Assembly (NCBI GenBank): GCA_965217865.1
Contig: CBDCJO010000002.1
Span: 1,024,001-1,088,000, forward strand
DNA: 64,000 nt
From: Candidatus Latescibacterota bacterium
GTDB lineage: Bacteria > Latescibacterota > UBA2968 > SICM01
Reading direction: 5' to 3'
Shown here: positions 30 through 49,451 of the stretch, piece by piece
Layout: every line of letters begins with the position of its first letter
Position numbering within the stretch: position 1 is the stretch's first letter
Notes under the pieces: generated by a model
Database searches by the model: none
Told to the model about the DNA's origin: nothing
What the model saw: the letters and a program-made list of their open reading frames with translations, nothing else
Translations under genes and position numbers: made by a program

Positions 30-744
30 ATGGCAAAAACAAGGTATAGAAATCAAAATCATGTTTACCATGAACGTGATATGTTTTCCTCGCCTGCGTA
101 TCTGTCCTTGTCTGGTAAATCGATTCAAGTGCTGATGCTTTTCCACTGTAAGAAGCAAGTTGAATCTCCACCAAAAGGAACAAAGCCGGTGGATTGGCAC
201 TGGCCAATTATAAATAACGGAAAGATAACGTTTACCTACGCTGAGGCTGATCAACTAGGAATATCTAACAGGCAGTTTGCTCACGCTATTAATCAGTTGC
301 ATGATCGAGGCTTCATAAACGTGAAGCAACCTGGAGGTGGAGTCAATAAATCAGCATCCCTGTATGAGATTACCTTTCGCTGGAAACGATGGGGAAAGGA
401 AGATTTTAAAGTAAATCACCCCGCCCAAAGGGCGGGGCATTAACCACTCCCCTCCCCAAACAGATCCAACTGTAGGGGCCCTTTCTGCTCTTGAAGATGA
501 AACCGAATATATCCTCTGATCACTTTAGAAGTTACCTTTTCGACTACGGTACGGACAAAACAGCCTTTTAGCTTACCCTCAGCAAGCTAAACTTTTCCTC
601 CCCTTCCAAAGGAAGGGGTATCCAAGTTCAAATACTTTCATGAAATTGAGACCAAAACCACGATTCCGAATCCCCGGAATGGGTTTTAAACCAGGACACT
701 CACCTTACAAAAGAACGAGTGCGAATTTTCCCAAACATACATAA
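30..744 (+). pseudogene. HTH replication-initiator-like protein (phage/satellite), interrupted by the 229-bp IS200-type mini-element
   Basis: ORF 30-410 has 'SPAYLSLSGKSIQVL...NNGKITFTYAEADQLGIS...LHDRGFI...SLYEITFRW'. Removing 411-639 rejoins it in frame to MKLRPKPRFRIPGMGFKPGHSPYKRTSANFPKHT* (stop 742-744). Confidence 0.6.
411..639 (-). mobile_element. 229-bp non-autonomous IS200/IS605-family element (PATE/MITE), copy 1
   Basis: Identical by inspection to 22334-22562 and to the reverse complement of 49223-49451. Subterminal hairpins, TCAT target at the left end, ends in TTAC, no TSD. Confidence 0.9.
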
Positions 745-910
745 AGGTGTGAGGTTCACATACATAAAGGTGTGTAATGGGGGTAATTGCATACATAAAG
801 GTATGAGCTAAAAATTCTCTTAAAATTCGTGTATATCTTTTCTGTGTAGACGGATAAGAAATAAAGTTGGGCTTTATACTAATTCTGAAATCCTCATACG
901 TTTATGTACG
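735..910. repeat. Iteron-like repeats (putative replication origin)
   Basis: CATACATAAAGGT(G/A)TG at 736, 759 and 790, plus an inverted 2-mismatch copy at 893-910, followed by AT-rich GTATATATATAAT. Lies directly after the Rep-like gene. Confidence 0.65.
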
Positions 911-1202
911 GTATATATATAATCTACCATCATCTAACTGAAATGGGTAAGGCCATGCCAAGACGAACCTATCTGATAACAAGCGGTACGGTTCGCGCCT
1001 GAGCTTGGTCTATCGCGAATTTCAAGGACCTCTTTTAGGTTGCCCAAGAGATGGGGGTCCCACAGGGTGTGCCCGACGCGACTGGTTTTTGCTGAAGGCC
1101 GACAGCAGTTAAGATCCCAGGCTGCTATAATCACAGTAAATACACTAAACCTAACATAGTAACGTAAAGCTATATATCCCATTTCCATGTCCCTGTTTTG
1201 AG

Positions 1203-1964
1203 GTGCTACCAGCCATGCCAGACGAGGAACAAGGCCAAGAAACACGCGAGGAACGAGGCGCCCCAGACCAGGAGACCGAGCTTGTCCAGGTCCCGGGCTT
1301 GGACACGGAGGCCGGCCCGGCCGGGGTGCCGCTAAGGGCGAGAAAGTTCTGGAAATTGCTGTCCATGTCCCAGCGCCTGGCCTTGGAATATATCGAGGTC
1401 CACGGCCTGGCCTCGATCAAGGCCTTGGCCGAGGCTGTGGGCTTGAAGGAGCGCACTGTTCACTACTGGGCCAAGCCGAGGACGGACGGGGGCCTTGCCC
1501 GGGCCGAGGCCTGGAAAGAAGGCCTTGACGCGGCCCTGGCCTTGCGGGGGGAACTGCGGGCGATAATAAGGGAATATTGGATTGCCAGGGATGAGGAGCA
1601 AGTGAGGGAATTGCAACGGCTTTATAACAGCCTACCAGATGACTATATCGACAAGATTATCGATACTCCCAAAGTCCCAGTCCGAGGCCCTGATGGGAAA
1701 GTCACGTATCAACACGGGGCGATTGTGGACCCGACAACGGGAGGGGTCTTGGTGGCCAAGATGCCGGACGGGTCCGAGGTCCCCGTGACCAGCCTGGCGG
1801 TCCGTAAATCGAATGCAGCGGAGAAGGCAGCGCTATTGAAACAAGCCCGGGAGATGGTCCAGGGAAAGGACCCGGTGCGTGTCCGGGCCGGGGTCCACCT
1901 TGACGCGAGCCAAGGCAAGGCCGGGGTGATCCTGGAGCTTGACGGGGCCCCGGAATTCATTTGA
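1203..1964 (+). CDS. Phage/satellite protein with N-terminal HTH, terminase small subunit-like
   Basis: 'SIKALAEAVGLKERTVHYW' is HTH-like and is followed by a helical region. Lies downstream of Rep and origin. Confidence 0.4.
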   Translation: MLPAMPDEEQGQETREERGAPDQETELVQVPGLDTEAGPAGVPLRARKFWKLLSMSQRLALEYIEVHGLASIKALAEAVGLKERTVHYWAKPRTDGGLARAEAWKEGLDAALALRGELRAIIREYWIARDEEQVRELQRLYNSLPDDYIDKIIDTPKVPVRGPDGKVTYQHGAIVDPTTGGVLVAKMPDGSEVPVTSLAVRKSNAAEKAALLKQAREMVQGKDPVRVRAGVHLDASQGKAGVILELDGAPEFI

Positions 1965-2424
1965 GGGAAAAAACCTACAATATTTGGAGCACTGTTTTTA
2001 ATCGTTCATTGGTTGTATTTGGGGAGTGGTATGTTTAGGATCAGTCTTATTCTGAATTGGAGGTGGATCATGGGACAGTTCGCCCTTGAGGCGCAGCCGA
2101 GCGGATGCAAGGCGGTGGTGCACCCCTGGGTTTGCGCCGTACCGGAAGCTGACAGTTAATGTGGGAGCCCCGCTCTTGGAAGTAGTCTGCAACATTGCAA
2201 ACGGCAGAAAGGAGAGCTTTGACATGAGGAGTCGCTGTGTTGGTTGTGCAGGTAGACTTGCCGTGGATTAAACTGCCACGCATGCGGAAGGCAGCGACAA
2301 CTCGGCTCCAGTTCTTTACCACCTCCGTGAGTCGCAGCGGGTGCTCAGCCGAGGCCACCTCACTTTGCCAGAGATCCCGAAATTGGACCCTAGCTGAATT
2401 GGTCATGTGATCGCGCGTGCCATC

Positions 2425-2521
2425 TGTTAACAGCACAGTTTGCGCTGCGGCGCTGCTCGCGCCTTGGCCTTCGGCAACGCCTCGTCAAGCTCGGCGTTCG
2501 CAAACCGGCGAAACTTTAACT
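2425..2521 (+). other. attC-like integron recombination site (degenerate)
   Basis: TGTTAAC...GTTTGCG...CGCAAAC...AAAC-TTTAAC imperfect palindrome of about 97 bp immediately upstream of a gene. R' appears mutated from GTTAAC. Confidence 0.45.
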
Positions 2522-2574
2522 GCAATGGCGGCACACGTGTTAAACACCACGTATCCCAGATTCGGAGATCTGAA

Positions 2575-3165
2575 ATGTCGTTTACTACTCAGTTCGGTCC
2601 ATCTAGCGGTTCTTTGGTGATCGTCGGTGGAGGAATGAACCCAGAAATCACCGAACGATTCATCCAACTTGCAGGGGGACCAGAAGCCTCGATCGTGGTC
2701 ATCCCTACCGCAGAGACCGACGAAGAGATTCATATGACCCAGGATAAGGACGGTGTGCATCCTTTGAAAGCTGCCGGAGCTGACACCATTTCCATCCTAC
2801 ACACGAGGGACCGCGAAGTAGCTGACTCAGAGGAATTTGTGCTACCAATTCGTAAGGCTATGGGGATATGGTTTACAGGTGGGAGACACTGGCGACTGAC
2901 AGACGCATATCTCAATACTTTAGCACTCAAAGAGTTTCACGGGGTCCTACAGCGTGGTGGGGTGATTGGAGGATCCTCAGCGGGAGCCACCGTTCAAGGC
3001 TTGTATATGGTAAGAGGTGACACAAATGAGAATACAATTATGATGGGAGATCACGAGGAAGGCTTCGGTTTCATTCGCAACGTTACAATTGACCAGCATC
3101 TACTAACCCGAAATCGCCAGTTTGACCTAACAGAAGTTATAGAAGCGCATCCGGACCTGCTTGGA
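2575..3165 (+). pseudogene. Cyanophycinase / peptidase S51, 3'-truncated
   Basis: 'LVIVGGG','VVIPTA','IWFTGG','GGSSAGA' (nucleophile Ser),'IDQH'. Ends abruptly against an IS3 fragment. Confidence 0.85.
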
Positions 3166-4088
3166 TGAGCCCCGGTTGCGGCTTGCGTCGCCGACAGGCC
3201 ATCCGAAATGCCCGTAAGACCAGATCCGCCGTCATAAGACAGCCTGTGGACCAGCCTACGACTTTGCGAGCAAACAGATCCAACACCACGCACAGGTAAA
3301 GATATCCCCGTCGCGTGCGGATATAGGTGATATCCGATGCCCAGACCTTGTCCGGCTTATTCACCTGGAACTGCTGCTTCACCAGATCCCGGGACGCCAA
3401 ACCAATGCCACCTTTGGTCAGCACCCGGAACCGACGCTTCGGCTTTCCCTGGATGCCGCAGGCCCGCATCAGCCGCGCAACACGATTACGGCTGCACACA
3501 ATGCCTTCAGCCTTGAGACCCTGCGTTATCCGAGGACTGCCATACGCCCTCTTCCTGGAATGCTGATGCATTCCTCGAATGTGCTCAATCAGAGCACGAT
3601 CGCGCTTGCATCGACCACTTTCTGGCTCCTGGTGCCAGGCATAATAACCGCTTGGATCAACCTCCAGCACCCGGCACATCCGCCGTATCGGAAACTGACC
3701 CCGGTGCTCTTCGATAAAGGCGTATCTCATTGGGACCGGTTGGAGAAGTAGGCCAGCGCTTTTTTTAGGATGTCTCGCTCCTGCTCGACCTGGGAAAGCT
3801 TGCGCTTCAGATCGTAGACCTCCTGGTCTTCCGTTGTCCGCTTCCCGTGACCCGGAAACACATCATCCGGATGCTTCTGAAACTGCCCGATCCATCGATA
3901 CAACACGCCTTCTGGAATGTCCCATTCCAGGGAAACTGCCTTCACCTTCTCGCCGTCCACCAGTACCTTACGAACGGACTCCAACTTGAACTGACGATCG
4001 TACCTGCAACGACGTACCATAGAGGACACCTCCCTTAACTAATTTACTTCTCCCTTATCTGGGTGTCCACTAAATCGGGGCAAGATTA
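3166..4088 (-). mobile_element. IS3-family element, right part deleted (orfA 3727-4029, orfB partial)
   Basis: orfA HTH. orfB 'YGSPRI...WASDITYI...VVLDLFARKVVGW'. Left IR TAATCTTGCCCCGATTTAGTGGACA. Confidence 0.9.
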
Positions 4089-4160
4089 GCCGTCTCACGT
4101 CTCACATCTCACGGTTCACGTTTGACCGTTTTTCTCTCTGGCCTCTGACCCCTGACCTCC

Positions 4161-4735
4161 ATGCTCTTGACCCCCTCTTCAACCGAATTCCTCGACCTGG
4201 CCCGGACCACACTCAATCATCGACGCCAGCCCTTCCGATTCCGGGCGACCGGGACCAGCATGGAGCCCTTCATCCGGTCCGGAGACATCCTGGAACGACG
4301 CGGCAGGCGGGTCCGCCTCGACCGCGGAGCACAGCGTGCCATGCGCTGGCCGGGAGCGCGTATCCCGATCGGCAGGCGAATCTCCAGGACCCTGGGCGGA
4401 TGGGGCACTGCGATCCGCGAGCGGCTCGACCGGGACGGGGGGGACCTCCTGCGGGTCGTTTCACTCTGCGGACCGTCCGTCCGTGTGGACGGGCTTCTCC
4501 CCGAATCCGAACCCGAATGGGAAGACCTGGTCTCCGTCGCCGTAACCCGGGACCTGGCCCCGCTCCTCTATTTTCAATTCCAGCGTTCCGGGACGGAACT
4601 TCCGCTCGAAGTATCCCGGGCCCTTTCACGCGCCTACTATGGTTCCGCCGCGCGGTATGTCGTCATGATCAACGCCTTCGGAGAGGTCCTGAAAGCCATC
4701 ACCGACGCAGAGATCTTGCCCAGCACCGGAGCCCG
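4161..4735 (+). pseudogene. Deleted S26/S24 peptidase-like plus nucleotidyltransferase-family fragment
   Basis: 'FRFRATGTSMEPFIRSGDIL' followed by 'WEDLVSVA...LAPLLYFQ' segment. Both are incomplete. Confidence 0.5.
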
Positions 4736-4737
4736 CG

Positions 4738-4910
4738 ATGACGAACGGCCGTTGCCGGATGCGCGGGGGAGCATCGCCCGGCGCACCGGTCGGTAACACG
4801 AACGCCTTCAAACACGGTCTTTTCACCGCCGCGGCGATCGCCGAGCGGCGGGAAGCGGCTGCGCTCATTCGTGAGATGAAGGGCCTTGTCGAGCAGGCCG
4901 ACGGTCAAGA
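4738..4910 (+). pseudogene. HGGxSTG-motif small phage/island protein fragment
   Basis: 'GRCRMRGGASPGAPVGNTNAFKHGLFTAAAIAERR'. Confidence 0.6.
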
Positions 4911-5502
4911 CTGGACCAGCCTGTGCAGCCCGTGCGGTTTCTTTTCGCCCACTTCATACATTGGGGGGCAACTCCGGGGCCAGTTGCCGCGGCCGGGGGA
5001 AGGCAGAGTTGCGCAAGCGTAGGGCAAATCAGCCGGACCCTGAAAGGAGTTTTTCATGCCTCAAAGAATGTTGCGGCGGCGCGAAGTCGAAGCGTGAACC
5101 ACCTGTTCCCGGCGAAGGACCTGAAAGGCCGGAGGCTGCGCCAAGCTCCTACTCGCCAAGCCACGCCGGGTGCTGGTCAACCTGCCGACGGACGTCGAGG
5201 CCGTCTACCCCTGTTGCGACCTCGACGGGGAACGAGTACGCGCGAACCTGTCGTTACCCTGCCGATCCCTGCCGACGCGACGGCGAGGCGTGGGCACATC
5301 GCATGCCCGGGAATCGCTTTCCGTACCGCGTCGAGACGCTGACCGGCGACGGACGGACGGTGAAGGGGACCGATGATCCTTCCCAACGAGTTGGAGAGAG
5401 TGATCGGCCCGGTGACTTTTACGGCGCCAGCGACCTGCAGCCTGGGCGCGCGGTCTACACCCCATTCGAGGTAGTACCGCATGGGCTCGAACCGACTTGT
5501 GG

Positions 5503-5531
5503 TTGACAGATATATATCCGTGCACTATATT
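5503..5531 (+). promoter_or_regulatory. sigma70-like promoter
   Basis: TTGACA-17 bp-TATATT. Confidence 0.55.
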
Positions 5532-5584
5532 CGGTGTGTCACCCACGGGGCGGCGCAGGGATTGGCATGGCTGTGATTGCACAC

Positions 5585-5710
5585 ACGAGATAAAGAACCG
5601 GGAGGCGAGTGGACGGGCACGGCCTCCTGGACCCTGGCCCAAGCGGCGTGCGATCACATCGCCAAGTCCAAGACGTGGCCAGACAGTCCCCGGGGGTGCG
5701 GCGACGGTCC
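5585..5710 (+). ncRNA. Putative IS110-family non-coding end / bridge-RNA-like fragment
   Basis: Adjacent stems CCGGGAGGC..GCCTCCTGG and CTGGCC..GGCCAG with large loops. Resembles IS110 left ends from memory. No recombinase follows. Confidence 0.35.
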
Positions 5711-5846
5711 GCCTTGAGGGTCAGCACCTCATCCTGGAAATCCTGGTTGTTTTCCAGGTCGACAATTTCAAGATGAAGTGCCCTTGCGGCGTCGCGGCAG
5801 ATTCGACTGCCATGATGCTCATGTTTAGCAGGTGAACTCCACGGCT

Positions 5847-6671
5847 TCAGAACACGTAGCGCAAGGATATCCGAAGTCCCTGGCTCGACAGATTCGCTCT
5901 GGTTTCGGCAAGATCTATCTCCAGCGAGTCGCGACTTCCGTCGCGCCAGACAATCCGACCCATGGCCTTGCTGGTTTCGACGATGCCGGAATCCGTGTAA
6001 CGCCAGGCAAGACCAAGGATCATCCTCTTCCGTAGCGATGTCGACACTCCCGCGCTCAGCATCCAAGCGAAATTAACCCGTTCTCCGCGCGGAACGACGG
6101 TCGTCGTCTTCAGGAACGCCATCCGCGTTTCATTAATACCGATGTGGGACAGGCCGACGCCACCCCCGGTAAAGGGGCTGAAGGGACCGAGCCGGGGTAG
6201 GCCAAATTCGGCAAGGTCCAGGTAAGCAGCAAGCATGCCGGACAGGGAGGACAAATTCGCCGAAATCGCCTGCCTGTCCGTGGTCAAGGGTTGCACAAAA
6301 TTGGCGCGACCCTCGAATGAAAAGCCTGGACGATGCTGAAGCACTGCTTCCAGCCGCAGGGCAGGCACCACGACATAGCCAACCCCGAGATTGAAACCGG
6401 CCATTGGTCCGAAATCGCCGAGCGAGCTCAAAGGTGCGCCGTCCACGCCGGTCCCGCAGCCATAAAGCGCATTCGGAGAAGCGCTCGAACAGTCCTTATC
6501 TTTGAATCGCGTTTTTTCCGACCAGTCGAAAACAACCCCAGTCACCAAATAGAAACCTTCAGGCGACATGGTGTGCAGGCCCGTCTGCGCGAATGCCATG
6601 ACCGGAATGACAGCCGCTATAACAGCCGAGACGAGTGCTGTCCGAGGCCATAATGCACGAAAACCGATCAT
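5847..6671 (-). CDS. Outer-membrane beta-barrel (opacity/Ail-like) protein
   Basis: Signal peptide 'MIGFRALW...VMAFA', amphipathic strands, C-terminal 'ISLRYVF'. Confidence 0.8.
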   Translation of the reverse strand: MIGFRALWPRTALVSAVIAAVIPVMAFAQTGLHTMSPEGFYLVTGVVFDWSEKTRFKDKDCSSASPNALYGCGTGVDGAPLSSLGDFGPMAGFNLGVGYVVVPALRLEAVLQHRPGFSFEGRANFVQPLTTDRQAISANLSSLSGMLAAYLDLAEFGLPRLGPFSPFTGGGVGLSHIGINETRMAFLKTTTVVPRGERVNFAWMLSAGVSTSLRKRMILGLAWRYTDSGIVETSKAMGRIVWRDGSRDSLEIDLAETRANLSSQGLRISLRYVF

Positions 6672-7149
6672 CGACTTGTGGCGCTTCGACGTTTTCAAGA
6701 TGTGTTTATTCCCTTGTACATATCCCATATTTACCAGCATATTGAGTTTTTTTGACATTCGGTTTTTTGCCCCTTCACAGAAACGAGCAGGGTGCTTCCT
6801 GGTGGTAGCAGAGGTATGTGGAAGTTCACCTCGTTTTCTGCCGTGCAGGATATTAGTCGCGTTCAAGGATTCCGGCAATCACATCGTCATATTGACAGCC
6901 TTTATCCAGGGCAGCGATCGCACGACTTGTCCATCCATTCGGAGAAGGCTTCTTCGATGATTGGATTCGGGTCAGCGACGAGTTTTTTGAATTCGGTCAA
7001 TTTATTAAGGTAAGGAGACTCGACGCAGGCGGAGATTTTCGGACTTGCAGTAGCCATGATCTCCTTCCAGCCTGGAACTGTCGATAAGATCGCGGTGCGC
7101 AGTCGGAGTTCGCCCCGCCGTGTGCGAGTCATTGTTTGAGAGCGCGTTC

Positions 7150-19860: not shown

Positions 19861-20033
19861 GTTGGAGTCGAAAACGCTCGCACCCGCCTCGACCAGCTTC
19901 GCATAGTCCACCATCCCCTAAAGGCCGCTTTTGTGTGTTCGAACTCCCTGGAGATCAGCCGGTTTCTCCCCGAGACCATCTCCGACGTTGAAAAGATGAT
20001 CAGGAGTCCCCGCAGACAACAACCGGATGCCTA

Positions 20034-21561
20034 TCAGCCCGTTGAAGAACTACCTTTCAACGCACATAAACGGAAAAGACGCCTGGAGTGCGGGTCAGAT
20101 AAATCAAGGTAAGGAGATTGAGCAGGAGACGCTGATAAGAGGTTAAAAAGGTGACCGAGGGCAGCAAACGTGATTGTAGGACGAGCAGTAGACGCTGCAA
20201 GGCCTTGGCCAGGTCCTGGAGGGCCTTCGGAGTACCTACGCCCATCACTTTGCGCATGAGCAGAGCCAGGTTGCAGCCCCCGATGTGGATCAGCAAACGC
20301 TTGAGGATATTGCCGCGGTCTCTCAAGTGCAACCTGCGCATGCCACCGGTATCATATGTGTGAGCGATGGTTCTTTCCACCCGTTCTGCACGACTTCGGC
20401 GCAAGGCCTTGCCGCGATCTCCCTTGATCCGGCGTCGATTCGCATATACCGCGGCCTGCTCATCTCGTCGGCCGTTCCACTTGCGGCGTCCCCGATCCGG
20501 TTCTGAAATGTAACTCCGGATGCCGCCTTGCTTCAGACTGGTCAATACATCGTTGCTATGATATCCTTTGTCCGCAACCACCTCCCGTATACGCTGTCTG
20601 TGCAAACGCTTAGCAGCTTTTTCGTCCTTCGCAACCTGCTTGAGATTGAGCTGCGCCTCGAGCAGCGTCCAGGGCAACGACTCGGTATCTCCTTCATCTG
20701 CTCCCGACAACGCCACTGCCACAATGGCATTGGTGTCCAGATCCACCGCGTGCTCCACCTTGTGCGCCATGTGCGTGCGACCGTCCTTCATCTTAGCGAT
20801 CTTGGCATCCGGGTCGTGCGGGTGCTCCCAGTCCTGGTTCGATCCCTTCTTCGGTCGCTTCTTATCGATCTTGGACAAGTCCTCGCGGGTAGGCGTTTCA
20901 ATGCCCGAGGCCTTGGCCAGATTCTCAAGGAATGCCTGGTAGCCTTCACCCGTGTCACGGCGTACAATGCTGCGCATCGCGGCGTTGGCCTCCAGTGTCG
21001 TAGCATCCACGCCCAACGTCTTCCCCTTCACCAGACCCGCTTTGCACAAGACCCTCAGGATCCACTTGAAAACCGCTTCGTGAACTTCCAAGGGAAGCCG
21101 ATGCCGGATGCGAGACAGGCTGGAATGATCCGGGGTCTGTTCGTCAAGGGCATACCCCAAAAACCGGCGCAACGTCAGCGAGTCAGATACACGCCATTCG
21201 ATCCCACGTTCCGAATCAAGTCCCTCGAAATACCCAATCAAAAGCATCCGAAAATAAACCCCGGGCGGAATGCCCTTGCGACCCATATGAGGAGCGTAAT
21301 ACCGCTGGCAAAGCCCCTCGACGAACTCGTCGAAGCCGTTCGCCCCCAATACCTGATTCAGCTTCTCGTAGAACGGATGACCCGGAGATTTCACCAAAGT
21401 GTTCGATGCGATGAACAGGTTTTCCTGTCTCTGTCGTCCTCGTTTTCCCATTGCCATTTGCTCGTCCTCCCTTCTCAGTTTGAACCTGATATATCATAGG
21501 ACCAAACCACAAGGAAAGACAACAGTCATCTTGGCATAAACGCACTTTTTCAACAGGCTGC
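20034..21561 (-). mobile_element. IS1182/IS5-like element, copy 1 (transposase 20057-21457)
   Basis: 466-aa DDE transposase ('TPDHSSLSR','GVDATTLEANA','VADKGY'). IRs CAGCCTGTTGAA/TTCAACGGGCTG flanked by TA. Confidence 0.93.
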
Positions 21562-22764
21562 TATGCGTCGTAGCCCTCAGGCACGCCTATACTCTTTGGG
21601 GGAGGAGCCGGGGGAGGGGTGCGCAGTTCTATTTCAACGGGATCTATCGACAAATGAATGCCGTGCTGACTCTTCAATTTAGAAAGTCCACGTTGGGCAT
21701 GGCCTTTCCCTTCGAACTCGTCACGATACAAAGCGGTCGATGCTTCGATAAGGATTTCAGTGAAACGGCTTTTCCAATCCGGGTACATATCAGGAAACCA
21801 TCCTCTGAACTTCATTTCGGCCTCCAATGGAGCCATTCGGTCGATAAATGATGGATGGGCATGCAGCACTTTTCTCCAGTAAGAATGTGCCATTTCGTGA
21901 AAAACAAGATACCTTTGAGATCGATATCGTTTGAACCTAAGGGGAAGTGGACTAAATCGAAATACAACAGGCGGACCCCACAAGGCGAACGAGACCTTTG
22001 CATTTGATATCTCAAAACCAAAGGATGGTGGACAAAGTGGATTTGGGACTAAGACCAAGTTGTTAATAGAAAACCCAAATAAAAGGTTCATAAATTCGTC
22101 AACTCTAGCTTCCTCCAGTGACTCACTGCAATCACTAATCACTATATCCCATGAATCCTCAGTCTGTGCCCAGAAGGAACCGAGTTCAGCTTTTTCATAA
22201 AATTCAGCAAGAAGGGTTGAACATCGATGCTCTTCAAAAAAAGAGAGGAGCTTATTGGAGCATCCCCCTGGTACAAGATCTAATTGAACCATAAAGTTAG
22301 GTGCCATACCGAGATATGATGCGTAGGTAAGAAGTAAATCACCCCGCCCAAAGGGCGGGGCATTAACCACTCCCCTCCCCAAACAGATCCAACTGTAGGG
22401 GCCCTTTCTGCTCTTGAAGATGAAACCGAATATATCCTCTGATCACTTTAGAAGTTACCTTTTCGACTACGGTACGGACAAAACAGCCTTTTAGCTTACC
22501 CTCAGCAAGCTAAACTTTTCCTCCCCTTCCAAAGGAAGGGGTATCCAAGTTCAAATACTTTCATGAACTTATCCAGTGTTCTTCAGTTAATTGCCGTATA
22601 GCCATCACACATTGAAGGTTCTCAACTCTACCCAGATGTTTCAATGTCTGGATTCGCAGCTTGTGAGGTTTTCTTCCAGCCATGTTTTCGTCAACAAACT
22701 TCGTTAAAAGTAGCACCGATGAGACAAGACGAAACTGGTCATCTATTCGAATATCCAGAGCCAT
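21561..22764 (-). pseudogene. HExxH metalloprotein (DUF4932-like), interrupted by mini-element
   Basis: Excising 22334-22562 fuses '...EEHWISS' to 'FLTYASYLG...' in frame. Contains 'FHEMAHSY'. Confidence 0.6.
22334..22562 (-). mobile_element. 229-bp IS200/IS605-type mini-element, copy 2
   Basis: Same sequence as 411-639. Inserted next to TCAT, no TSD, host frame restored on removal. Confidence 0.92.
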
Positions 22765-28455: not shown

Positions 28456-28605
28456 GCTGCTGTAGCGTAGAAATAACTACCATAGTATGTTAGTTAGTGT
28501 CAAGAAGCGCTGGATGAGAGGGAGCAGGTCTGTGCAGCGACTGTCCCAAGGTCCACATAGGCACCGGCACTACTCCGTTGGCACCCGCTCGGAATGCGCG
28601 CCCTA

Positions 28606-30133
28606 GCAGCCTGTTGAAAAAGTGCGTTTATGCCAAGATGACTGTTGTCTTTCCTTGTGGTTTGGTCCTATGATATATCAGGTTCAAACTGAGAAGGGAG
28701 GACGAGCAAATGGCAATGGGAAAACGAGGACGACAGAGACAGGAAAACCTGTTCATCGCATCGAACACTTTGGTGAAATCTCCGGGTCATCCGTTCTACG
28801 AGAAGCTGAATCAGGTATTGGGGGCGAACGGCTTCGACGAGTTCGTCGAGGGGCTTTGCCAGCGGTATTACGCTCCTCATATGGGTCGCAAGGGCATTCC
28901 GCCCGGGGTTTATTTTCGGATGCTTTTGATTGGGTATTTCGAGGGACTTGATTCGGAACGTGGGATCGAATGGCGTGTATCTGACTCGCTGACGTTGCGC
29001 CGGTTTTTGGGGTATGCCCTTGACGAACAGACCCCGGATCATTCCAGCCTGTCTCGCATCCGGCATCGGCTTCCCTTGGAAGTTCACGAAGCGGTTTTCA
29101 AGTGGATCCTGAGGGTCTTGTGCAAAGCGGGTCTGGTGAAGGGGAAGACGTTGGGCGTGGATGCTACGACACTGGAGGCCAACGCCGCGATGCGCAGCAT
29201 TGTACGCCGTGACACGGGTGAAGGCTACCAGGCATTCCTTGAGAATCTGGCCAAGGCCTCGGGCATTGAAACGCCTACCCGCGAGGACTTGTCCAAGATC
29301 GATAAGAAGCGACCGAAGAAGGGATCGAACCAGGACTGGGAGCACCCGCACGACCCGGATGCCAAGATCGCTAAGATGAAGGACGGTCGCACGCACATGG
29401 CGCACAAGGTGGAGCACGCGGTGGATCTGGACACCAATGCCATTGTGGCAGTGGCGTTGTCGGGAGCAGATGAAGGAGATACCGAGTCGTTGCCCTGGAC
29501 GCTGCTCGAGGCGCAGCTCAATCTCAAGCAGGTCGCGAAGGACGAAAAAGCTGCCAAACGTTTGCACAGACAGCGTATACGGGAGGTGGTTGCGGACAAA
29601 GGATATCATAGCAACGATGTATTGACCAGTCTGAAGCAAGGCGGCATCCGGAGTTACATTTCAGAACCGGATCGGGGACGCCGCAAGTGGAACGGCCGAC
29701 GAGATGAGCAGGCCGCGGTATATGCGAATCGACGCCGGATCAAGGGAGATCGCGGCAAGGCCTTGCGCCGAAGTCGTGCAGAACGGGTGGAAAGAACCAT
29801 CGCTCACACATATGATACCGGTGGCATGCGCAGGTTGCACTTGAGAGACCGCGGCAATATCCTCAAGCGTTTGCTGATCCACATCGGGGGCTGCAACCTG
29901 GCTCTGCTCATGCGCAAAGTGATGGGCGTAGGTACTCCGAAGGCCCTCCAGGACCTGGCCAAGGCCTTGCAGCGTCTACTGCTCGTCCTACAATCACGTT
30001 TGCTGCCCTCGGTCACCTTTTTAACCTCTTATCAGCGTCTCCTGCTCAATCTCCTTACCTTGATTTATCTGACCCGCACTCCAGGCGTCTTTTCCGTTTA
30101 TGTGCGTTGAAAGGTAGTTCTTCAACGGGCTGA
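28606..30133 (+). mobile_element. IS1182/IS5-like element, copy 2 (transposase 28710-30110)
   Basis: Identical 466-aa protein and same IRs. Inserted in CTAG at the stop codon of the nuclease gene. Confidence 0.93.
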
Positions 30134-31383
30134 TAGGCGTTTTCGCCGACGGCTCGCAGCCATTCGGTGCGAGAAATTACATAGCTGGTGGCCATTCGCT
30201 TCTCGATTTTGAGGTTGGCTACCGGATTCTGGATCATCTGTAGACGGGGTGAATCGCTGCCCATGTGCTCGACGAGAGCCAAGACATAGTTGTCGGTGTG
30301 TTCACAGGCCGCATGATACTCGGTAGTGGTCAAGCTGACCGTGTCCAGTGCATGGAGGCTGCTTTTCACTTCGATCACCATCACCCGACTTTCCTTTCGC
30401 GCCCAGAGATCGAAGCCATAGCCGCGCCGATTGGTATAGAACGCGACCTCCCATCCTTGTGAACGGAGCACCTTCGCCACGAAGCTCTCCGCATCAGCAC
30501 CGTCGTTGCTGGCCGGTGCGGCGGGCGGCGTGAGCAGTTCCTCCAACTCAGGCGGTTCCGGCATACGCAATTGGGGAGCAGGGATACCTTCGGGTGCGGC
30601 AGGCGCGGCATGTTCTCCGACCCAGTCCGGAGTTAGCAGCAGGCGTGTCCCTTCGCGGACCACACTGGTACCGAGCGAGAAGAGCGAAAACGTATGCAGC
30701 CCGACATCACACCAGTTCGAATACGCCTTAGCCCCTGGTATACGGTTGCGGACTTCAGCATGCAGGGTGGTCTGTTCGTCCGGGGACAGTGCACGATACT
30801 CCGCGATTGCGGCGACAGCCCAGGAGACTTCGTTGCGCGCGCGTATCCGGGACACAAAGAAATCAAACTCGTTTCGGTCGATATAGCCGCCGCAACTCCG
30901 GAGTACCTGTTTCGTCACTTCATAGACACGCACATCGAATTCGTCATATTGTGCAACCCGGTTGGACGGCGACCACGGTTCGACAGCAAACCGCATCGCG
31001 GAGAGCGATTGTTCGAGCACTTCCGCCGGATCATCCGTATACGCAAGCACACGCCCGCGTTCGGTGAGCACTATGCGATCCCATCTGCGACCGTCCTCGC
31101 GCTGCAGGAGTTGTAATAGCTTGTCCATAACCAGAAGGTGATGACGCCTGAGCTGTACACCGGGATCATCATTGTCCGTTTCTATGATTGTCGCCAGTCT
31201 GTCGTAGTCGTGCTTAGTCAGACGAATGATACCGTGGCCTCCTCGGTTCTCCAGATATTCGGCAATACCCTTCAACCATGACAACGCGACGTGGACACGG
31301 GTGATTACAAACCAGCCACGGTCTCCGCGATCTCCCTTTTCGAGGCGATCCACCAGCCTCCGGCGAACCTGTTCCAGACTCAC
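30133..31383 (-). CDS. DUF3883/NOV-type PD-(D/E)XK endonuclease, probable restriction partner of the tandem MTase
   Basis: C-terminal 'AESFVAKVLRSQGW...GYGFDL...IEVKSS'. The original TAG stop is disrupted by the IS. Confidence 0.7.
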
Positions 31384-36860: not shown

Positions 36861-37127
36861 GAAAGTATTTGAACTTGGATACCCCTTCCTTTGGAAGGGG
36901 AGGAAAAGTTTAGCTTGCCGAAGGCAAGCTAAAAGGCTGTCTTATCGTGTGCAGACCACTGAGACACAAATCGACTCAGGAGGCATACGATGGGACTCCG
37001 ACGGACCAGTCACGCAGTCTATGATAGCCAGTATCCTCTGGTATGGGCACCGAAGTACCGGAAATGGATTCTGCGAGGTGACCTTCGAGCGTATGTGGGC
37101 AAGCTGTTTCATCGGATCAAAAAAGAG
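36861..37127 (+). mobile_element. tnpA: IS200-family left end plus tnpA 5' fragment (relative of the 229-bp element's parent)
   Basis: First 80 bp nearly match the mini-element left end after TCAT. ORF from 36990 'MGLRRTSHAVYDSQYPLVWAPKYRKWIL' is a Y1 transposase N-terminus. Confidence 0.88.
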
Positions 37128-42904: not shown

Positions 42905-45538
42905 ATGTCCAACGACTTCGCCCGCCGTATCCGGTCTGTGCACCTCGCCTGGCTTCTCTTGGCTCTGCTGCTTTTTTCCCATTCCCAAGGGTCAGCACAG
43001 GTGACATTGACCGGCACCGTGGTGGATGCCGATGGCGGCATTGGATTGTCCCAAGTCAACATTGCCGTTGAAAAAGATGCCATGACAGCTACCATCACGG
43101 ATGCGCAGGGCGCCTTCAGACTCGAGGTCGACCGCCTCCCCGTTATCTTGATCGTCAGTCTCATTGGCTACGAGACGGACCGGGTGGTCGTCAGCGAAAA
43201 CGTCGCTATCGAGGTAATGCTGCGCGTGCTGGCTGTGGAAATGGAGGGCTTGGTGGTCGTGGGATCCCGCTTTGTTCCACGCACCGCCATCTCCTCACCG
43301 GTCCCGGTCGACAACATATGGGCTTCGGAACTGGCTGCCACTGGCCAACTCTCCATCGACAAAGCGTTGACCTACACCGTCCCGGCCTACAACTCCACCC
43401 AGCAGACCATCTCAGATGCCACGGCCCATTTCGACCCCGCCGACCTGCGTGGGCTCGGCCCCAGCCGCACCCTGGTGCTGATCAATGGCAAGCGCAAGAA
43501 CCCCAGCGCGCTCGTCTACATCAACGACACACCTGGCAAGGGCGAAGTGGGGGTCGACATGAAGAGTATTCCGGCCTCGGCGGTAAAACGGATAGAGGTG
43601 CTTCGCGATGCCGCCGCCGCCCAGTACGGGTCTGACGCCATCGCCGGCGTCCTCAACGTGATTTTGGACGACGAACCGGACGGCACCGAAGTGCAGTTGT
43701 TTTCTGGTCTGATGGATGAGGGGGACGGCGGTTTCCGGGGGTACAATCTCAGCACCGGATTCAAACTGGGTGGGGAGGGGTTCTTACGCGTCAGCCACGG
43801 TTTTAGCGATCAGGACGAGACCAACCGGGCGCCCAACCCCGGTCGCGACGATCTGTTCGGTGTCGGTGCGGATGACCCGTGGATTCAGGCGAATCCCGAC
43901 CTGGGCATGCGGGTCGGATTGCCTAACACCACCGGTGCCGAGTTCTTCTACAATGCCGGCATGCCCCTGTCTGAAGAGGCGGACATCTACAGCTACGGCG
44001 GCCTGCAGTACCGCAACGGCATCAGCTACGCACTCTACCGCACGCCCTATTGGATTCCCGATCCGAATAACATTTATCATGATGAAGGAGAGACTTACAA
44101 CGGATTCCATCCCACCTTCGAGACCGACATCTTCGATCGCACGCTCGCAGTGGGCACGCGGGGCAAAAGGTCAGGGTGGGACTTCGACATCAGCAACACC
44201 CTTGGCAGCAACAGTGTCGACTACACGGTACGTCAATCCCTCAACACCGATCTGGGTGCCGAAAGCCCCACCACCTTCCGCACCGGTGGGTACGAATTCA
44301 GTCACAACGTCAGCAACTTGGACATCGCCCGGAGGATTGGCAACGCCACTGTGGCGATGGGTACCGAGTTTCGCACCGAAAACTTCCAGGCCAAAGCGGG
44401 CGAGGAGGCCTCTTACATTGGCAGTGGCACGCAGTCATTCCCCGGCTTGCAGCCGCAGAATGAAGTGGATGTCAACCGTCACAACGTCGGAATTTATGCC
44501 GATGTCCATTACGACTTCGACGGACAGGTGCTTCTCGGCGCCGCCGCCCGTCGGGAAAACTACAGCGACTTCGGCGACAATCTTTCCTGGAAATTGATCG
44601 GTCGATATGGGTTCATGGAGAACCGGGGATCGGCAAGAGTGTCCGCCTCTACTGGCTTCCGCGCGCCCTCACTACACCAGATCTATCTGAGCAACATCCA
44701 GACGCTGATTTCAGGCGGCACCGTTTCAAATCAAGGCACGTTCAACAATGAAAGTCCGGTCTTACGCGCGCTGAACGTGCCGAAACTCGAAGAGGAAAAG
44801 TCCTTCAACATCACCGCCGGGGTAGCTCTGCGTCCGATCAAGTCAGTGCTTCTGTCGGCAGACGTTTATCAGGTGGATGTAGACGATCGCATCGTTTACT
44901 CCAGCAGCATTGCTTCGTCAGATACCTCGTCTACGGTAGGCTCCATTCTCGACCAGTACGACATAACCAGTCTTAAATTCTTCACCAACGCGGTTGACAC
45001 GCGCACCCGCGGCATCGATATGGTCGCCTCCTACGCTAGGGCCGTGGGGCGCGGTCTGGTCGATGTGGACTTCGGCGCCAACTTCTTCGACACCGACATA
45101 CGTGGTCAGATCAGCACCCCGGCACCCATTGCCAGCGCTGACTTCGAAATCTTTGACCGCAAGGAGCAGTCGCGCATCCTCACGGCCAGACCGAAAAACA
45201 AAATCCTGCTCAGGGTCACTTACACAAGAGGCCCCCTGAGCGCAACGTTGAACAACGCCCGCTTCGGTGCCGTTACCTGGCGACACGCCGATGATCCAGC
45301 CAAGGACCAGACGTTTGATCCGCGGATTGTCACCGACTTGACGGTCGAATATCGACTGAACGAGACCGTTCGGTTTGGTGCAGGCGTCAACAACCTTCTG
45401 AACGTCTACCCGGAGAAGATTGACAGCAAGGGAGACGTGCTGACCGACTTGGGCGGACGCTTCCAATATCCCTGGGAGGTGAATCAGTTCGGTTTCAACG
45501 GCATGACCGGAGTTGCGCGTCTGCGTCTCAGTTTCTGA
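42905..45538 (+). CDS. TonB-dependent outer-membrane receptor with carboxypeptidase-regulatory-like N-domain
   Basis: RBS GGAGG, signal peptide, plug 'LRGLGPSRTLVLINGKR','RIEVLRD..AAQYGSDAIAGV', C-terminal F. Confidence 0.93.
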   Translation: MSNDFARRIRSVHLAWLLLALLLFSHSQGSAQVTLTGTVVDADGGIGLSQVNIAVEKDAMTATITDAQGAFRLEVDRLPVILIVSLIGYETDRVVVSENVAIEVMLRVLAVEMEGLVVVGSRFVPRTAISSPVPVDNIWASELAATGQLSIDKALTYTVPAYNSTQQTISDATAHFDPADLRGLGPSRTLVLINGKRKNPSALVYINDTPGKGEVGVDMKSIPASAVKRIEVLRDAAAAQYGSDAIAGVLNVILDDEPDGTEVQLFSGLMDEGDGGFRGYNLSTGFKLGGEGFLRVSHGFSDQDETNRAPNPGRDDLFGVGADDPWIQANPDLGMRVGLPNTTGAEFFYNAGMPLSEEADIYSYGGLQYRNGISYALYRTPYWIPDPNNIYHDEGETYNGFHPTFETDIFDRTLAVGTRGKRSGWDFDISNTLGSNSVDYTVRQSLNTDLGAESPTTFRTGGYEFSHNVSNLDIARRIGNATVAMGTEFRTENFQAKAGEEASYIGSGTQSFPGLQPQNEVDVNRHNVGIYADVHYDFDGQVLLGAAARRENYSDFGDNLSWKLIGRYGFMENRGSARVSASTGFRAPSLHQIYLSNIQTLISGGTVSNQGTFNNESPVLRALNVPKLEEEKSFNITAGVALRPIKSVLLSADVYQVDVDDRIVYSSSIASSDTSSTVGSILDQYDITSLKFFTNAVDTRTRGIDMVASYARAVGRGLVDVDFGANFFDTDIRGQISTPAPIASADFEIFDRKEQSRILTARPKNKILLRVTYTRGPLSATLNNARFGAVTWRHADDPAKDQTFDPRIVTDLTVEYRLNETVRFGAGVNNLLNVYPEKIDSKGDVLTDLGGRFQYPWEVNQFGFNGMTGVARLRLSF

Positions 45539-45930
45539 AGCAGGGTTCAATAGGGTGCTGCGAGCAGGCGGCCGATGATGGCGACAACCAGGACCGTCGC
45601 CTGAGATCCTTCCGGGGTGGACGGTCCAATTTGTATACAAACTTATCCGTCTGATTATCTTCCGGTTCGCCATCGACGGCCGCCGCCAACCTCCGGAGGG
45701 TTGGGAGCAGGTCCCCGCGTCGCTGCACCTTCTCCGAAACCCTTCAGCTGTGTCAAGATCGGGTCCACTTCCTCAGAATGCGCTCAGACCAGGCGCTTCC
45801 GCTCCTGCAAGTAATGCTCGATCCTCTGCACACTTCACTCTTCTTCTTCGATAGCGTCCGCACAGCCCCAACCTGAGAATCAGTCCGGTTCCGGTTCGAG
45901 TATCGAGAAGAATGTAGTACACCATGACAC

Positions 45931-46705
45931 CTAAAACTTGGGATATAGCTTCTTCAGTTTGATGCGGGCGTCGGTGGTCGTGAACTGCCAATCAAGGGTT
46001 CTGTGTTTCTCGTTTCGATCACATTTCCAGGCCTCCACTTCGTTGGTGAGGGTCTGCAGGTCAGGAATGCGGCTGTGCAGGCATTGTCTGGCAAGGACGC
46101 TCAGTTCGATCTCAGCGATATTGAGCCAGCTGCCGTGCCTGGGCGTGTAGTGCAATTCGAGGCGTTTGGCTAGAGAACGGGCCTTTTCGGGTGGGAAGGC
46201 CTTGTAGAGAGATGCGATGGTGTGAGTATTGAGGTTGTCGCAGACCAGCACCACGACTTGCGCATCCGGGTAGTCCACCTCAAGCAGTTCCTGGATCTCG
46301 TAAGCCCAGTCTACGGCGGTCCTGCGTTCCCGGACGTGGACCTTTCCGACGTCCGGTCAGGGGCTCGAGGAACAAGAAATTCGCGGCTGTGCCGTGACGC
46401 TCATACTCATAGTCGTAACGTCGGGGATGCCCCGGTCTTTCCGGGACCGGGATGCGTGTCTCTCCGATCAACTGCACGGGGTGTTCGTCCATGGCCAAAA
46501 GCGGCCTTTTCGGATCATAGGGCCGGTGATACAGATCCAGAAGATTCTCCATGCAAGCTACGAATGCGGCGTTTTCCCTGGGCGGAATCACTTAGCACGT
46601 TTTCAGATGGGGCTTGAGTTCGTTTTTTTGAGCGCCCGTTGCACGGTCCGACAGGAGATGCTCTCGACGATGTTGAGTTCAACCAGCTTGTCGGCGAGCA
46701 ACTCC
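45931..46705 (-). mobile_element. IS630-family transposase, frameshifted and truncated
   Basis: 'MDEHPVQL','YDYEYERHGTA','VCDNLNTH','HYTPRHGSWLNIAEIEL'. Confidence 0.88.
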
Positions 46706-46787
46706 CTGCAACGACGTACCATAGAGGACACCTCCCTTAACTAATTTACTTCTCCCTTATCTGGGTGTCCACTAAATCGGGGCAAGA
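46706..46787 (-). mobile_element. 82-bp fragment of the IS3 left end seen at 4004-4085
   Basis: Same sequence, lacking the terminal bases. Confidence 0.85.
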
Positions 46788-46837
46788 CGAATTCGCTCAC
46801 TATTCACTGCTCACAATTCATCCCTCACCCTACGATA

Positions 46838-46872
46838 AAAAAATGCCCCGATGGATTTCCCGCCGGGGCATG
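46838..46872 (-). terminator. Rho-independent terminator after ABC ATPase
   Basis: ATGCCCCG...CGGGGCAT stem with a U-tract on the minus strand. Confidence 0.55.
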
Positions 46873-46892
46873 GGATTCATCGTAACTCCCCT

Positions 46893-47639
46893 TCAATTCT
46901 CAATCGGAGCCTGTTCCGATCGGCCTTCCGCATTTGTTCCGTACATGTAGTCGAGATACATCTTCTCCAGGTCTTCCGTCTCCAGCTCCTTCTTCGTCCG
47001 CTCCATGATCAGCTTGCCGGCCTTCATGATCCCCACCCGGTCCGCCAGCGTGCGGGCCCGGAAGATGTCGTGCGTGGACATGAAGACCGCCTTCCCCTCC
47101 GACCTGAGTTCCTCCAGGAGATCAATAAACTCCGAGCCGGCCTGCGGATCCAGTCCGGCCGTCGGCTCGTCCAGAAGGATCGCCAAGGCATCCCGGATGA
47201 TCACGATGGCGATCCCGACCTTCTGCCGCATACCCTTGGAAAACTCCTTCACCCGCTGTTCATAAGCCTTCTCCTCCAGACCGACCCGCCTGAGAATCTT
47301 GTAATATCCCTCCCGGTCCGTCTGCTTGCCAGCCAGCCCCGCGAAAAAATCCAGATTCTGCCGTGCCGTGAAATTTCCGTAGAGCATGACGTTTTCCGAC
47401 AGATAGGCCAGGTGTTTCTTGGCCTCCAGCGGGTCCCGCGTAACGTCGATGCCGTTGATCTTGGCCGTTCCCTCCGTGGGTTCGATGAAGTTGAGCATCA
47501 GGTTGATCGTCGTGGTCTTGCCCGCCCCGTTGGCCCCGAGCAGGCAGAAGATCTCCCCGGTGTCCACTTTCAGGTTGAGATTGTCCAGGGCAAGCACCCC
47601 GTCCTCGTAGCGTTTACTCAGACCGATGGCTTCAATCAT
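46893..47639 (-). CDS. ABC transporter ATP-binding protein
   Basis: GANGAGKTT, FSKGMRQK, LLDEPT, H-loop STHD. Confidence 0.95.
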   Translation of the reverse strand: MIEAIGLSKRYEDGVLALDNLNLKVDTGEIFCLLGANGAGKTTTINLMLNFIEPTEGTAKINGIDVTRDPLEAKKHLAYLSENVMLYGNFTARQNLDFFAGLAGKQTDREGYYKILRRVGLEEKAYEQRVKEFSKGMRQKVGIAIVIIRDALAILLDEPTAGLDPQAGSEFIDLLEELRSEGKAVFMSTHDIFRARTLADRVGIMKAGKLIMERTKKELETEDLEKMYLDYMYGTNAEGRSEQAPIEN

Positions 47640-47694
47640 TTCGTCTCTCCTTTGGTTTAAAACCCTTTGGTGTCTTCAAAAGGCCTACCTCCTC

Positions 47695-49222
47695 GTCAAT
47701 TTCACGCCATACCATACGATGCCGATCACGATGCCGATCACGCTGAAGACCAGTCCCGCGCTCAAAATCAGGTTCGTCCTGGCGCTCACGTGAATGCGCA
47801 CCGTCTTGTCCTGGGTCTGAACGGGCCGGTTGTCCGCCAGGGCCTCGGTCTGGATCTGGATCTCATAGTCCCCACGTCCACCCCCGATGGCGGAAGGAAC
47901 TTCAGCTTTACGAGGGTCTCCTTATCCGGAATCAACGAAGATATCACATCCGGGTTGATCCTGGACTGCCAGTTGATCGGCATGTTTGTGCGGATCCGAA
48001 TGTTGTCCAGACGCCGCGTGCCCCCATTGAGCACCCTGATGTCCATGTCCACGGTGTCATCCGTCTTGATCTCGTGGTAGAGGTTCACCGCCCGGACCTC
48101 GATGCGTCCCACACCCCGCGGCGTCATCTCCAGCTTGACTTTGCCTGTGTTGAGCTCGGCGATCTGTTCATCTGAAAACATTTTGTCGTCAAGGGGTTGA
48201 AGCTTCCGCCAGATCTCCTGGGGGACCACCAGTACGTAGAACGCCAGCGGCTTATCGATGGTCACGCGGTCGCTGGTACGGTCGGGCAGGAACACGTCCA
48301 GCTCCAGTTGCTTGCTGCTCACCCCTTGAGTGAAATTGACCTGGGAAAGCCTGCGGGATTGCGCGGAAGACGGGTCCATGAAGCTGTAGGAGATCTGCCG
48401 CGGCAGGTTGATCACACTCAGCTGAAATACGTCGTTGTCACTCGAAAATCGCTCCAGGTCCAGGGTGAAAGTGGCGCTTTCGCCCAGGTTGGCCTCCTGC
48501 GAGAAGTTCGGCGAGGTCACGATCACCCGGTCGGCCCCGGCGTCCTTCTGGAGATAGATGTGTCTCTGATCCGTCTTTCCCGCGTAGGTCATGCTGACCG
48601 TGACGACCTCCACGTCCTTCAGCAGCAGGAAGTCGATCTCTGCCTTCTGGCCGAAGCGAATCGTCGCAATCTTGCCCTCATACGGCTGGCTGATAATCGG
48701 CCCCACCCCACCCGTCTCCGTGGCCTCGTGGAGGGAGATGAAGACATTGTTGATCTTGTCCGGTTGAAGGCTGGGGTCGAAAACGTCCGCGTCCGTCTCG
48801 ACCAGCTTCGCATAGTCCGCCACCCCCCCTGTGGTGTTCTTCAAACTCAGACGCACCCGTTTTTTTCCGTCCTGGGCCTGGTACTTGACGGCCTTCTCGA
48901 TCAGGATGTGGGGTTGGTCGAAGATGACCCGAAGCATCGCCTGCTGGTAGTTGATCTCATGGTTGATAAAGGACGCTTGTGTCTTTTCGAATTCCTCCCG
49001 GGAGATCAGCTCCCTTTTTACCAACTCGAGGGCAGACTGGTATTCCGACTTTGCCAAGTCATACGCGGCCTTCTGCTTCTTGAGCGCCAGGATCAGGAAA
49101 GTCTCGTCGTTCCGTTCCGAGTTTAAGCTCTGGGAATACCCCGGGATCCGGGAACACGGAATCGAAAACAATACCAAAACCAAAAATGTCGAGACTTTGA
49201 TTTTCAACGGTTCGAATGTCAT
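47695..49222 (-). pseudogene. Secreted NEW3-domain protein of an ABC-2 operon, frameshift near 47870
   Basis: Signal peptide, coiled coil, 'VLNGGTRRLDNIRI...WQSRINP'. An alternate frame gives a C-terminal TM segment. Confidence 0.65.
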
Positions 49223-49451
49223 GAAAGTATTTGAACTTGGATACCCCTTCCTTTGGAAGGGGAGGAAAAGTTTAGCTTGCTGAGGGTAAGCTAAAAGGCT
49301 GTTTTGTCCGTACCGTAGTCGAAAAGGTAACTTCTAAAGTGATCAGAGGATATATTCGGTTTCATCTTCAAGAGCAGAAAGGGCCCCTACAGTTGGATCT
49401 GTTTGGGGAGGGGAGTGGTTAATGCCCCGCCCTTTGGGCGGGGTGATTTAC
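49223..49451 (+). mobile_element. 229-bp IS200/IS605-type mini-element, copy 3
   Basis: GAAAGTATTTG...GGGTGATTTAC after TCAT. Encodes the tnpA tail FVRTVVEKVTSKVIRGYIRFHLQEQKGPLQLDLFGEGSG* (49303-49422). Confidence 0.92.

Follow-up and report, generated by a model that had tools for sequence, protein, structure and literature searches.

Within the IS200/IS605 family of insertion sequences (ISs), gene-less ends have been shown to be mobilised in trans and excised without a scar (PMC10055086, PMC2806898), and excision has been demonstrated to restore interrupted genes with tetA and lacZ reporters (PMC2806898, PMC10055086). Scarless excision was demonstrated to be guide-dependent for the ISGst ends of Geobacillus stearothermophilus, and excision is reported to be orders of magnitude more frequent than integration (PMC10055086). 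Gene-less elements termed palindrome-associated transposable elements (PATEs) have been described in Haloquadratum walsbyi, where some arise by deletion of the core and some (e.g., HqIRS71) keep a C-terminal coding remnant (PMC3119063). Here we describe a 229-bp mini-element that occurs in three copies in a stretch of 64,000 nt (hereafter the window) from Candidatus Latescibacterota bacterium (assembly GCA_965217865.1, contig CBDCJO010000002.1, positions 1,024,001 to 1,088,000 of the forward strand). Very probably, the mini-element is an internally deleted, gene-less derivative (i.e., a PATE) of a 605-bp element in the same genome, likely moved in trans by the transposase (TnpA) of that parent via single-strand peel-and-paste. 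It has recently spread, with one sequence at 14 independent sites and one of these (site B) found empty elsewhere, and it is a homogeneous PATE, an already known kind: multi-copy, identical, with strain-variable insertions and parent-related ends.

The assembly (6.43 Mb in two contigs, C1 and C2; 96% complete, 9.3% contamination) was scanned for both ends of the element, which yielded 36 left and 35 right ends, with 33 unique flanks and 29 unique insertion sites. The mini-element was recovered as 15 identical full copies plus one copy cut at nt 99. These represent 14 independent sites, as copy C of the window and the copy at C2:3766725 sit in one duplicated segment (5.7 kb, 100% identical, the other copy at C2:3764207-3769918). 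As a whole, the duplication links window positions 46705-53593 to C2:3764207-3772627 (5.7 kb at 100% and 1.2 kb at 99.8%), and the latter carries a 1.5-kb insert relative to the window. The last 6.3 kb of C1 also overlaps C2:1-6322 at 99.97%, a segment that recurs at C2:3289754-3296505, and the two contigs may be one chromosome. The copies in the window and the parts of copy C are as follows.

411..639, minus strand: mini-element copy A, 229 bp, antisense in a 161-aa open reading frame (ORF; gene A)
22334..22562, minus strand: mini-element copy B, 229 bp, in sense within a 324-aa DUF4932-like gene (gene B)
49223..49451, plus strand: mini-element copy C, 229 bp, just ahead of the start codon (ATG) of a 478-aa ORF on the minus strand
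49219..49222, plus strand: target and left cleavage site TCAT of copy C, outside the element; TCAT stands before 36 of 36 left ends
49240..49243, plus strand: predicted left guide GATA of copy C, 5' of the hairpin as in IS608, with target covariation in relatives
49244..49262, plus strand: left subterminal hairpin of copy C, predicted TnpA binding site, present in the DNA fold and identical in the parent
49271..49295, plus strand: second left-end hairpin of copy C, with three changes relative to the parent and weaker in the mini-element (-6.0 vs. -10.5 kcal/mol)
49301..49308, plus strand: junction of the 376-nt internal deletion in copy C, with imperfect microhomology
49303..49422, plus strand: decayed tnpA 3' remnant of copy C, with the Tyr helix and QLDLF tail and without the tnpA start
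49421..49424, plus strand: predicted right guide AATG of copy C, overlapping the tnpA stop
49425..49443, plus strand: right subterminal hairpin of copy C, present in the DNA fold
49448..49451, plus strand: right cleavage site TTAC and element end of copy C; all three window copies end in TTAC

A first-pass annotation of the window, made by a model from the letters alone, had judged the three copies identical, each with three hairpins, and had read them as a recently mobile, internally deleted, tnpB-less IS200/IS605 derivative whose interior encodes the TnpA C-terminus with the catalytic Tyr helix. This description held up. Compared as sequences, the three copies are identical over 229 nt each; when folded as DNA, the left, second, and right hairpins all form (z -3.27, with 1 of 200 shuffles as good); and the interior corresponds to the 3' end of tnpA (~40 codons), with the conserved Tyr helix among them. 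A second left-end hairpin has likewise been described for IS608, ISDra2, and IS605 (PMC5934647). The mini-element is too short for a transposase and has stops in all six frames, and its ends (GAAAG... and ...TTTAC) are not inverted repeats. Lacking terminal inverted repeats and target duplication, it falls outside the strict definition of a miniature inverted-repeat transposable element (MITE). No sigma-70-like promoter was found, and the best Rfam hit (E 0.33) was nowhere near threshold.

The parent is a tnpA-only IS200/IS605 element of 605 bp, of which the genome holds 12 full-length copies (604-605 bp), all outside the window. Each encodes a single ORF, a 148-aa Y1 TnpA that matches PF01797 at 130-137 bits (above the cut-off) and solved TnpAs by phmmer, including the IS608 TnpA (2vhg, E 1.9e-16). 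Pairwise differences among the eleven copies of 605 bp amount to 0-7 nt. Among 80 related loci (TnpA protein identity 59-82%), the HxH motif and catalytic Tyr of the parent are well kept, with H60, H62, and Y126 found in 76, 79, and 78 of the 80, respectively. The mini-element consists of the first 80 nt and the last 149 nt of this parent; with the missing 376 nt, tnpA has lost its start and about 108 of its 148 codons. Over the whole length, 20 of 229 positions differ (91% identity), and the ends are nearly the same, with 57 of the first 58 nt and 82 of the last 84 nt alike. At either end, the main hairpin, the guide, and the cleavage site are common to the two elements. The further copies and intact tnpA that the first-pass annotation had advised looking for thus exist as 15 mini-elements and 12 full-length parents sharing their ends, and these shared ends and intact parents are the basis on which we consider trans-mobilisation by the parent TnpA likely. 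No TnpB domain (PF07282 or PF01385) was matched in the 96%-complete genome, with controls positive in 8 of 14 genomes.

The annotation had also placed a related parent left end and tnpA within the window. The related left end followed by a tnpA 5' part is indeed there; it is a dead fragment, and the intact tnpA genes lie outside.

36861..37117, plus strand: truncated parent fragment, a 257-nt match with the left end and the first ~42 tnpA codons (ATG at 36990), His16>Pro

The match to the parent stops after these 257 nt, with no right end. The His16>Pro change of the fragment recurs in 6 of the 12 full-length parents (C2:911846, 1190675, 1511683, 2055605, 2779987, and 3278266), at a position where 79 of the 80 relatives have His. 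Possibly, these parents are a dead-enzyme sublineage spreading in trans and, judging from the substitution, about half the parents may depend on the others for enzyme. The parent TnpA ends in QLDLF, a looser form of which is found in 57 of the 80 relatives, and which we take to resemble the sliding-clamp motif consensus. For IS200, a C-terminal peptide is known to bind the sliding clamp (PMC3971601).

Deletion has produced other forms of the parent as well, with lengths of 531, 317, and about 63 bp. The 317-bp form constitutes a second mini family, made of the left 267-272 nt and the right ~50 nt of the parent with TTTGG microhomology. Four copies have both ends, two of which are the same locus in the contig overlap (C1:577410, C1:651602 = C2:1915, C2:3294161, and C2:3762125); they are not identical and represent few independent sites. 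The ~63-bp form, in the C1:426923 region, is an ends-only remnant that stands after TTCAT and lacks the left hairpin, and a matching 166-nt skip was seen in sequencing runs X1, X2, X3, and X7.

The target of the element is well defined. As first proposed, TCAT stands before the element, TTAC closes it, and no target-site duplication is seen; what needed revising was the target, which is better written (T)TCAT/T (the slash marking the insertion point). T occupies position -5 in 31 of 33 unique flanks and position +1, immediately beyond the right end, at 28 of the 29 unique sites, compared to a background of 0.20 after genomic TTCAT. The preference at +1 is subfamily-wide (51 of 54 in relatives), and the element itself begins with G. 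T at target +8 was also common (19 of 29 sites; background 0.24, p 2e-6 before correction), with only 18 of 54 in relatives. At seven chosen sites (one mini, six parent-type), empty paralogous intergenic repeats align across the junction without extra bases, with an unrelated small gap in a paralog at one of the seven. Small TTCAT-containing intergenic repeat families were hit at C2:473495, 1511683, 2055605, 2321072, 5161982, and 5252673.

The guides predict these sites. The IS608 guide pairs through its first two bases with target positions -3 and -4 (PMC5934647), and a fourth guide/target pair would follow from the published IS608 guide and site sequences. Applied here, the IS608 rule turns GATA into TCAT and AATG into TTAC, both as observed. 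Parsing of the 80 relatives gave 61 left ends, of which 40 remained once repeats were taken out, and 71 right ends, 70 of them unique. For the left ends, the guide predicted the cleavage site in 32 of 40 cases, whereas 10,000 permutations averaged 10.2 and never exceeded 21; for the right ends it did so in 63 of 70, with a permutation average of 32.6 and a maximum of 48, all among loci that are kin. Four targets (TTAT, TCAT, TTAC, and TCAC) each follow their guide, and in most of the left-end misses the predicted site lies one base beyond the parsing window. In relatives, the third guide base varies together with the base that opens the element (T/G 28, A/T 3, T/A 1), which recalls the +1 pairing of ISDra2, yet target +1 is T regardless.

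We compared the sites with other samples, reading junctions from contigs of sequencing runs with a rule of 31 letters on the short side. Site B was compared with four runs from four studies (X1, X3, X7, and X10) and site A with X2, X3, X6, and X7; X1, X2, and X6 belong to one study, which could include the source of the assembly. At site B, position 22333 is followed directly by 22563 in contigs of X3 and X7, an exact 229-nt skip at flank depth with short sides of 255 and 79 letters, respectively, so that the joint is empty in two of four runs, from two studies. Contigs of X1 cross from the flank into the element, with only 22-27 letters inside, and X10 covers the region in pieces, the listed ones having neither the filled nor the empty form. 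At site A, the empty form was found in one of four runs with weaker support: an X3 contig joins 410 to 640 with a side of 30 letters, one short of the rule. Contigs of X2 and X6 enter the element from the flank there, and the pieces listed for X7 show only a diverged relative. A 52-nt contig of X3 joins the left end of the element to the A flank, again under the rule, which hints that this sample holds both alleles of site A, filled and empty. The copy C flank is a loose end in X1, X3, and X6, so site C is read as filled in these runs. The empty sites that the first-pass annotation had suggested looking for were hence seen at B and, less firmly, at A. Overall, occupancy of the mini sites is polymorphic between samples. 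Depth ratios hint that the mini-element is not equally abundant in all of them, but depth is no measure of copy number and we draw no conclusion from it. The empty sites may be ancestral alleles, as contigs cannot separate excision from ancestral absence.

Mechanistically, we envisage the following by analogy with IS608, ISDra2, and ISGst, from which TnpA binding, the circle intermediate, and action in trans are borrowed. A TnpA dimer from His16 parents would bind the two hairpins on single-stranded DNA, where guide GATA would pair with TCAT and guide AATG with TTAC, and the cuts would fall after TCAT and after TTAC. The top strand would leave as a single-strand circle, the donor being resealed without a scar, and the circle would insert after a new TTCAT, nearly always before T, without target duplication. 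One master copy of the mini-element probably drifted to about 9% divergence from the present parents before a recent burst of amplification. Insertion into a gene would truncate it, and excision would restore the gene as a by-product of the chemistry.

Several points weigh against this explanation. No joint of the right to the left end, the circle junction that the first-pass annotation had proposed searching for, was found in the assembly or among the joints listed from eight comparisons with six runs, a weak negative given that contigs drop rare forms, and no transposition event was observed directly. Perhaps only the six His16 parents are able to supply enzyme. Given the 20 differences, the true donor of the mini-element may be a sister lineage rather than the present parents, and no closer full-length donor was found. 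The permutation test of the guides overstates significance, as the relatives are kin. Lastly, no bias of the sites toward the inferred lagging-strand template was seen (17, 18, and 16 of 33 at three window sizes, with a noisy GC skew); such an orientation bias is common in the family without defining it, and for IS200 it is described in only 32% of chromosomes (PMC3971601). Beyond this genome, the left-end variant of the mini-element had no match in metagenome contigs. The shared hairpin pattern occurred at eight loci, which all contain tnpA sequence and have 75-81% identity to the parent, none being a mini-element, and of 60 related genomes four had partial matches and none the mini-element.

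The genes next to the three copies in the window bear on what the insertions do.

30..744, plus strand: gene A, 161 aa, no Pfam match, split into 30-410 and 640-744
21561..22764, minus strand: gene B, 324 aa, DUF4932 match, split into 22764-22563 and 22333-21561
47786..49222, minus strand: 478-aa ORF with an NPCBM_assoc match, its ATG being the reverse complement of the CAT in target TCAT

Removal of the 229 nt restores both interrupted genes, as originally stated, with ORFs of 161 aa (A) and 324 aa (B). Homologs from other genomes align across both junctions (residues 12-155, E 2e-24 for A; residues 2-276, E 1.6e-5 for B), and the DUF4932 match lies in the downstream part of gene B. Restoration of the frame is expected of any precise insertion and is uninformative as to a switch. 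Copy C lies outside genes and separates the 478-aa ORF from its upstream DNA. Among the 14 sites, nine lie in long frames (A, B, three with SAM-methyltransferase matches, an MFS transporter, one with a weak proteasome-fold match, and two without Pfam match), three immediately precede a likely start codon (copy C, one at a di-haem oxidoreductase match, and one at a 72-aa ORF), and two are apparently intergenic. Given the stops in all six frames of the mini-element, the genic insertions truncate. The three hits in SAM-dependent methyltransferase genes (3 of 14) are probably chance. A plain count by frame length places 11 of 14 mini-elements and 6 of 12 parents in a genic setting, a mere trend from which we claim no contrast; the gene model first used to separate genic from intergenic sites overlooked low-GC genes, A and B among them. 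Flanks of mini sites are low in GC, with a median of 0.475 (n=14) compared to 0.533 for other element sites (n=15, p=0.003) and 0.534 over all TTCATT sites (p=8e-6), which would fit survival in dispensable accessory DNA.

These observations raise the idea of a self-erasing knock-out cassette, in which the mini-element lands mostly in low-GC accessory genes and excision by TnpA keeps on and off alleles within single populations, i.e., reversible loss of function with no TnpB to re-install the element. A reversible gene switch, which the first-pass annotation had raised, is possible, and precise excision is a general property of the family that does not imply regulated or selected switching. We consider the cassette reading rather improbable. 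A stronger version, in which the mini-element benefits the host or itself as an on/off switch of accessory genes or through a short interior peptide (Tyr helix plus QLDLF clamp-binding-like tail), strikes us as very unlikely. It can draw on the nine long-frame sites, several of them with Pfam or homolog support, on the three likely start codons, on the hint of two site A alleles in X3, where both contigs fall under the 31-letter rule, and on a GTG-started 27-codon frame that is open within the remnant. The targets, however, are unrelated genes in low-GC regions, each hit once. Landing at start codons, considered since TTCAT is the reverse complement of ATGAA, is not enriched (mini-elements 3 of 14, p=0.22; overall 4 of 29, p=0.44; background 11.6%) and was rejected as a targeting mode. 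Neither a ribosome-binding site beside the ATG nor the promoter sought above was found, and an empty site is indistinguishable from one that was never occupied. A functional peptide was also rejected: the QLDLF coding tail is kept, and the changes of the remnant relative to the parent (9 changed residues, 3 silent) look neutral, as expected from neutral decay. Another rejected candidate was a cassette carrying only a TnpB guide RNA, given the genome without TnpB, the right part derived from the tnpA tail, and the absence of any Rfam match near threshold.

Alternatively, the mini-element could be immobile, with full-length parents inserting at each site and later being shortened through homologous recombination between their ends and those of a single master mini-element. 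The near-identity of these ends would permit such conversion, and the 531-, 317-, and about 63-nt forms show parents collapsing in place. Against this, all 15 mini-elements differ from the parent at position 12 and at position 224, which is five bases from the element end, and conversion through end homology would rarely carry these differences along; mini sites are lower in GC than other element sites; and the alternative allele at A and B is empty, never seen as a 605-bp parent. We find conversion hardly credible. That the identical copies are an assembly artefact (a collapsed or duplicated repeat) can be practically dismissed, despite the 9.3% contamination estimate, the identical segment shared by copy C and C2:3766725 (the one pair of copies that is duplicated), and the 6.3-kb overlap of the contigs, as 14 different flank pairs all follow the target rule, independent runs contain the unique interior and its junctions to several flanks, and clean empty alleles at exact borders refute it for sites A and B. 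Of the three observations that the first-pass annotation had named as refuting its reading (duplicated targets or no TCAT preference at other copies, no cognate tnpA with these ends, and copies that are assembly duplicates), none was made, apart from the one duplicated pair. Overall, mobilisation in trans of an internally deleted derivative remains our preferred explanation.

The surroundings include other repeats and genes. Three identical 1.53-kb DDE (DUF772/IS5-like) ISs lie in the window at 20029-21563, 28604-30138, and 61089-62622, with about 90 long matches genome-wide and no orientation bias. A ~616-bp repeat (C2:~3476044-3476659) has dozens of copies genome-wide at over 99% identity. 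On the minus strand, window positions 54242-55591 encode a 449-aa serpin (PF00079, 328 bits) near ABC-transporter and TonB-receptor genes.

With the parent, the target code, several deletion derivatives, and empty alleles all in hand, the system offers a convenient natural substrate for TnpA assays. The subfamily-wide T at target +1 while the element starts with G, and a recent burst without TnpB, may be of specialist interest. Were the cassette reading true, the increase in copy number of a tnpB-less element and its parasite could be tested in this system as well. Greater weight would follow only if the empty alleles turned out to stem from excision and to arise repeatedly within populations. 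We found no account of this element or of natural IS200 phase switching in the literature, although absence from print is not established, as subscription papers were mostly outside reach and ISfinder was unsearched.

Compared with known systems, the mini-element most resembles the homogeneous PATEs of H. walsbyi (PMC3119063), with which it shares the lack of terminal inverted repeats, near-terminal palindromes, the absence of target duplication, no room for a transposase, copies over 90% identical, and strain-specific insertions. It differs from them in its length of 229 bp, its target TTCAT, and its origin from a tnpA-only element with intact copies in the same genome. Bacterial gene-less IS200/IS605 ends beside an autonomous tnpA are likewise represented by the ISGst PATE-like minimal elements of G. 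stearothermophilus (PMC10055086) and, in Halanaerobium hydrogeniformans, by a PATE-like element of 271 nt (PMC7290912). Elements with tnpB/iscB are present in those genomes, whereas no TnpB domain was found here, and the right part of our element derives from the tail of tnpA, with neither a tnpB tail nor a guide-RNA region. The Y1 HUH TnpA, hairpin ends, and a guide 5' of each hairpin are shared with IS608 of Helicobacter pylori and ISDra2 of Deinococcus radiodurans (PMC5934647, PMC3201880, PMC2806898), as are insertion 3' of a 4-5-nt target, a second left-end hairpin, and a preferred target +1 base. In contrast to IS608 (TTAC/C) and ISDra2 (TTGAT/G), the target here is (T)TCAT/T and tnpB is absent; and IS608 has C both as the first base of the element and at target +1, compared to G and T here. 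Finally, the archaeal IS200/605-derived "MITEs" of 341-570 bp (PMC3852290) are also multi-copy, without inverted or direct repeats, and have an IS200/605 partner, but they are only weakly similar to that partner, whereas the mini-element matches its parent at 91% from end to end.

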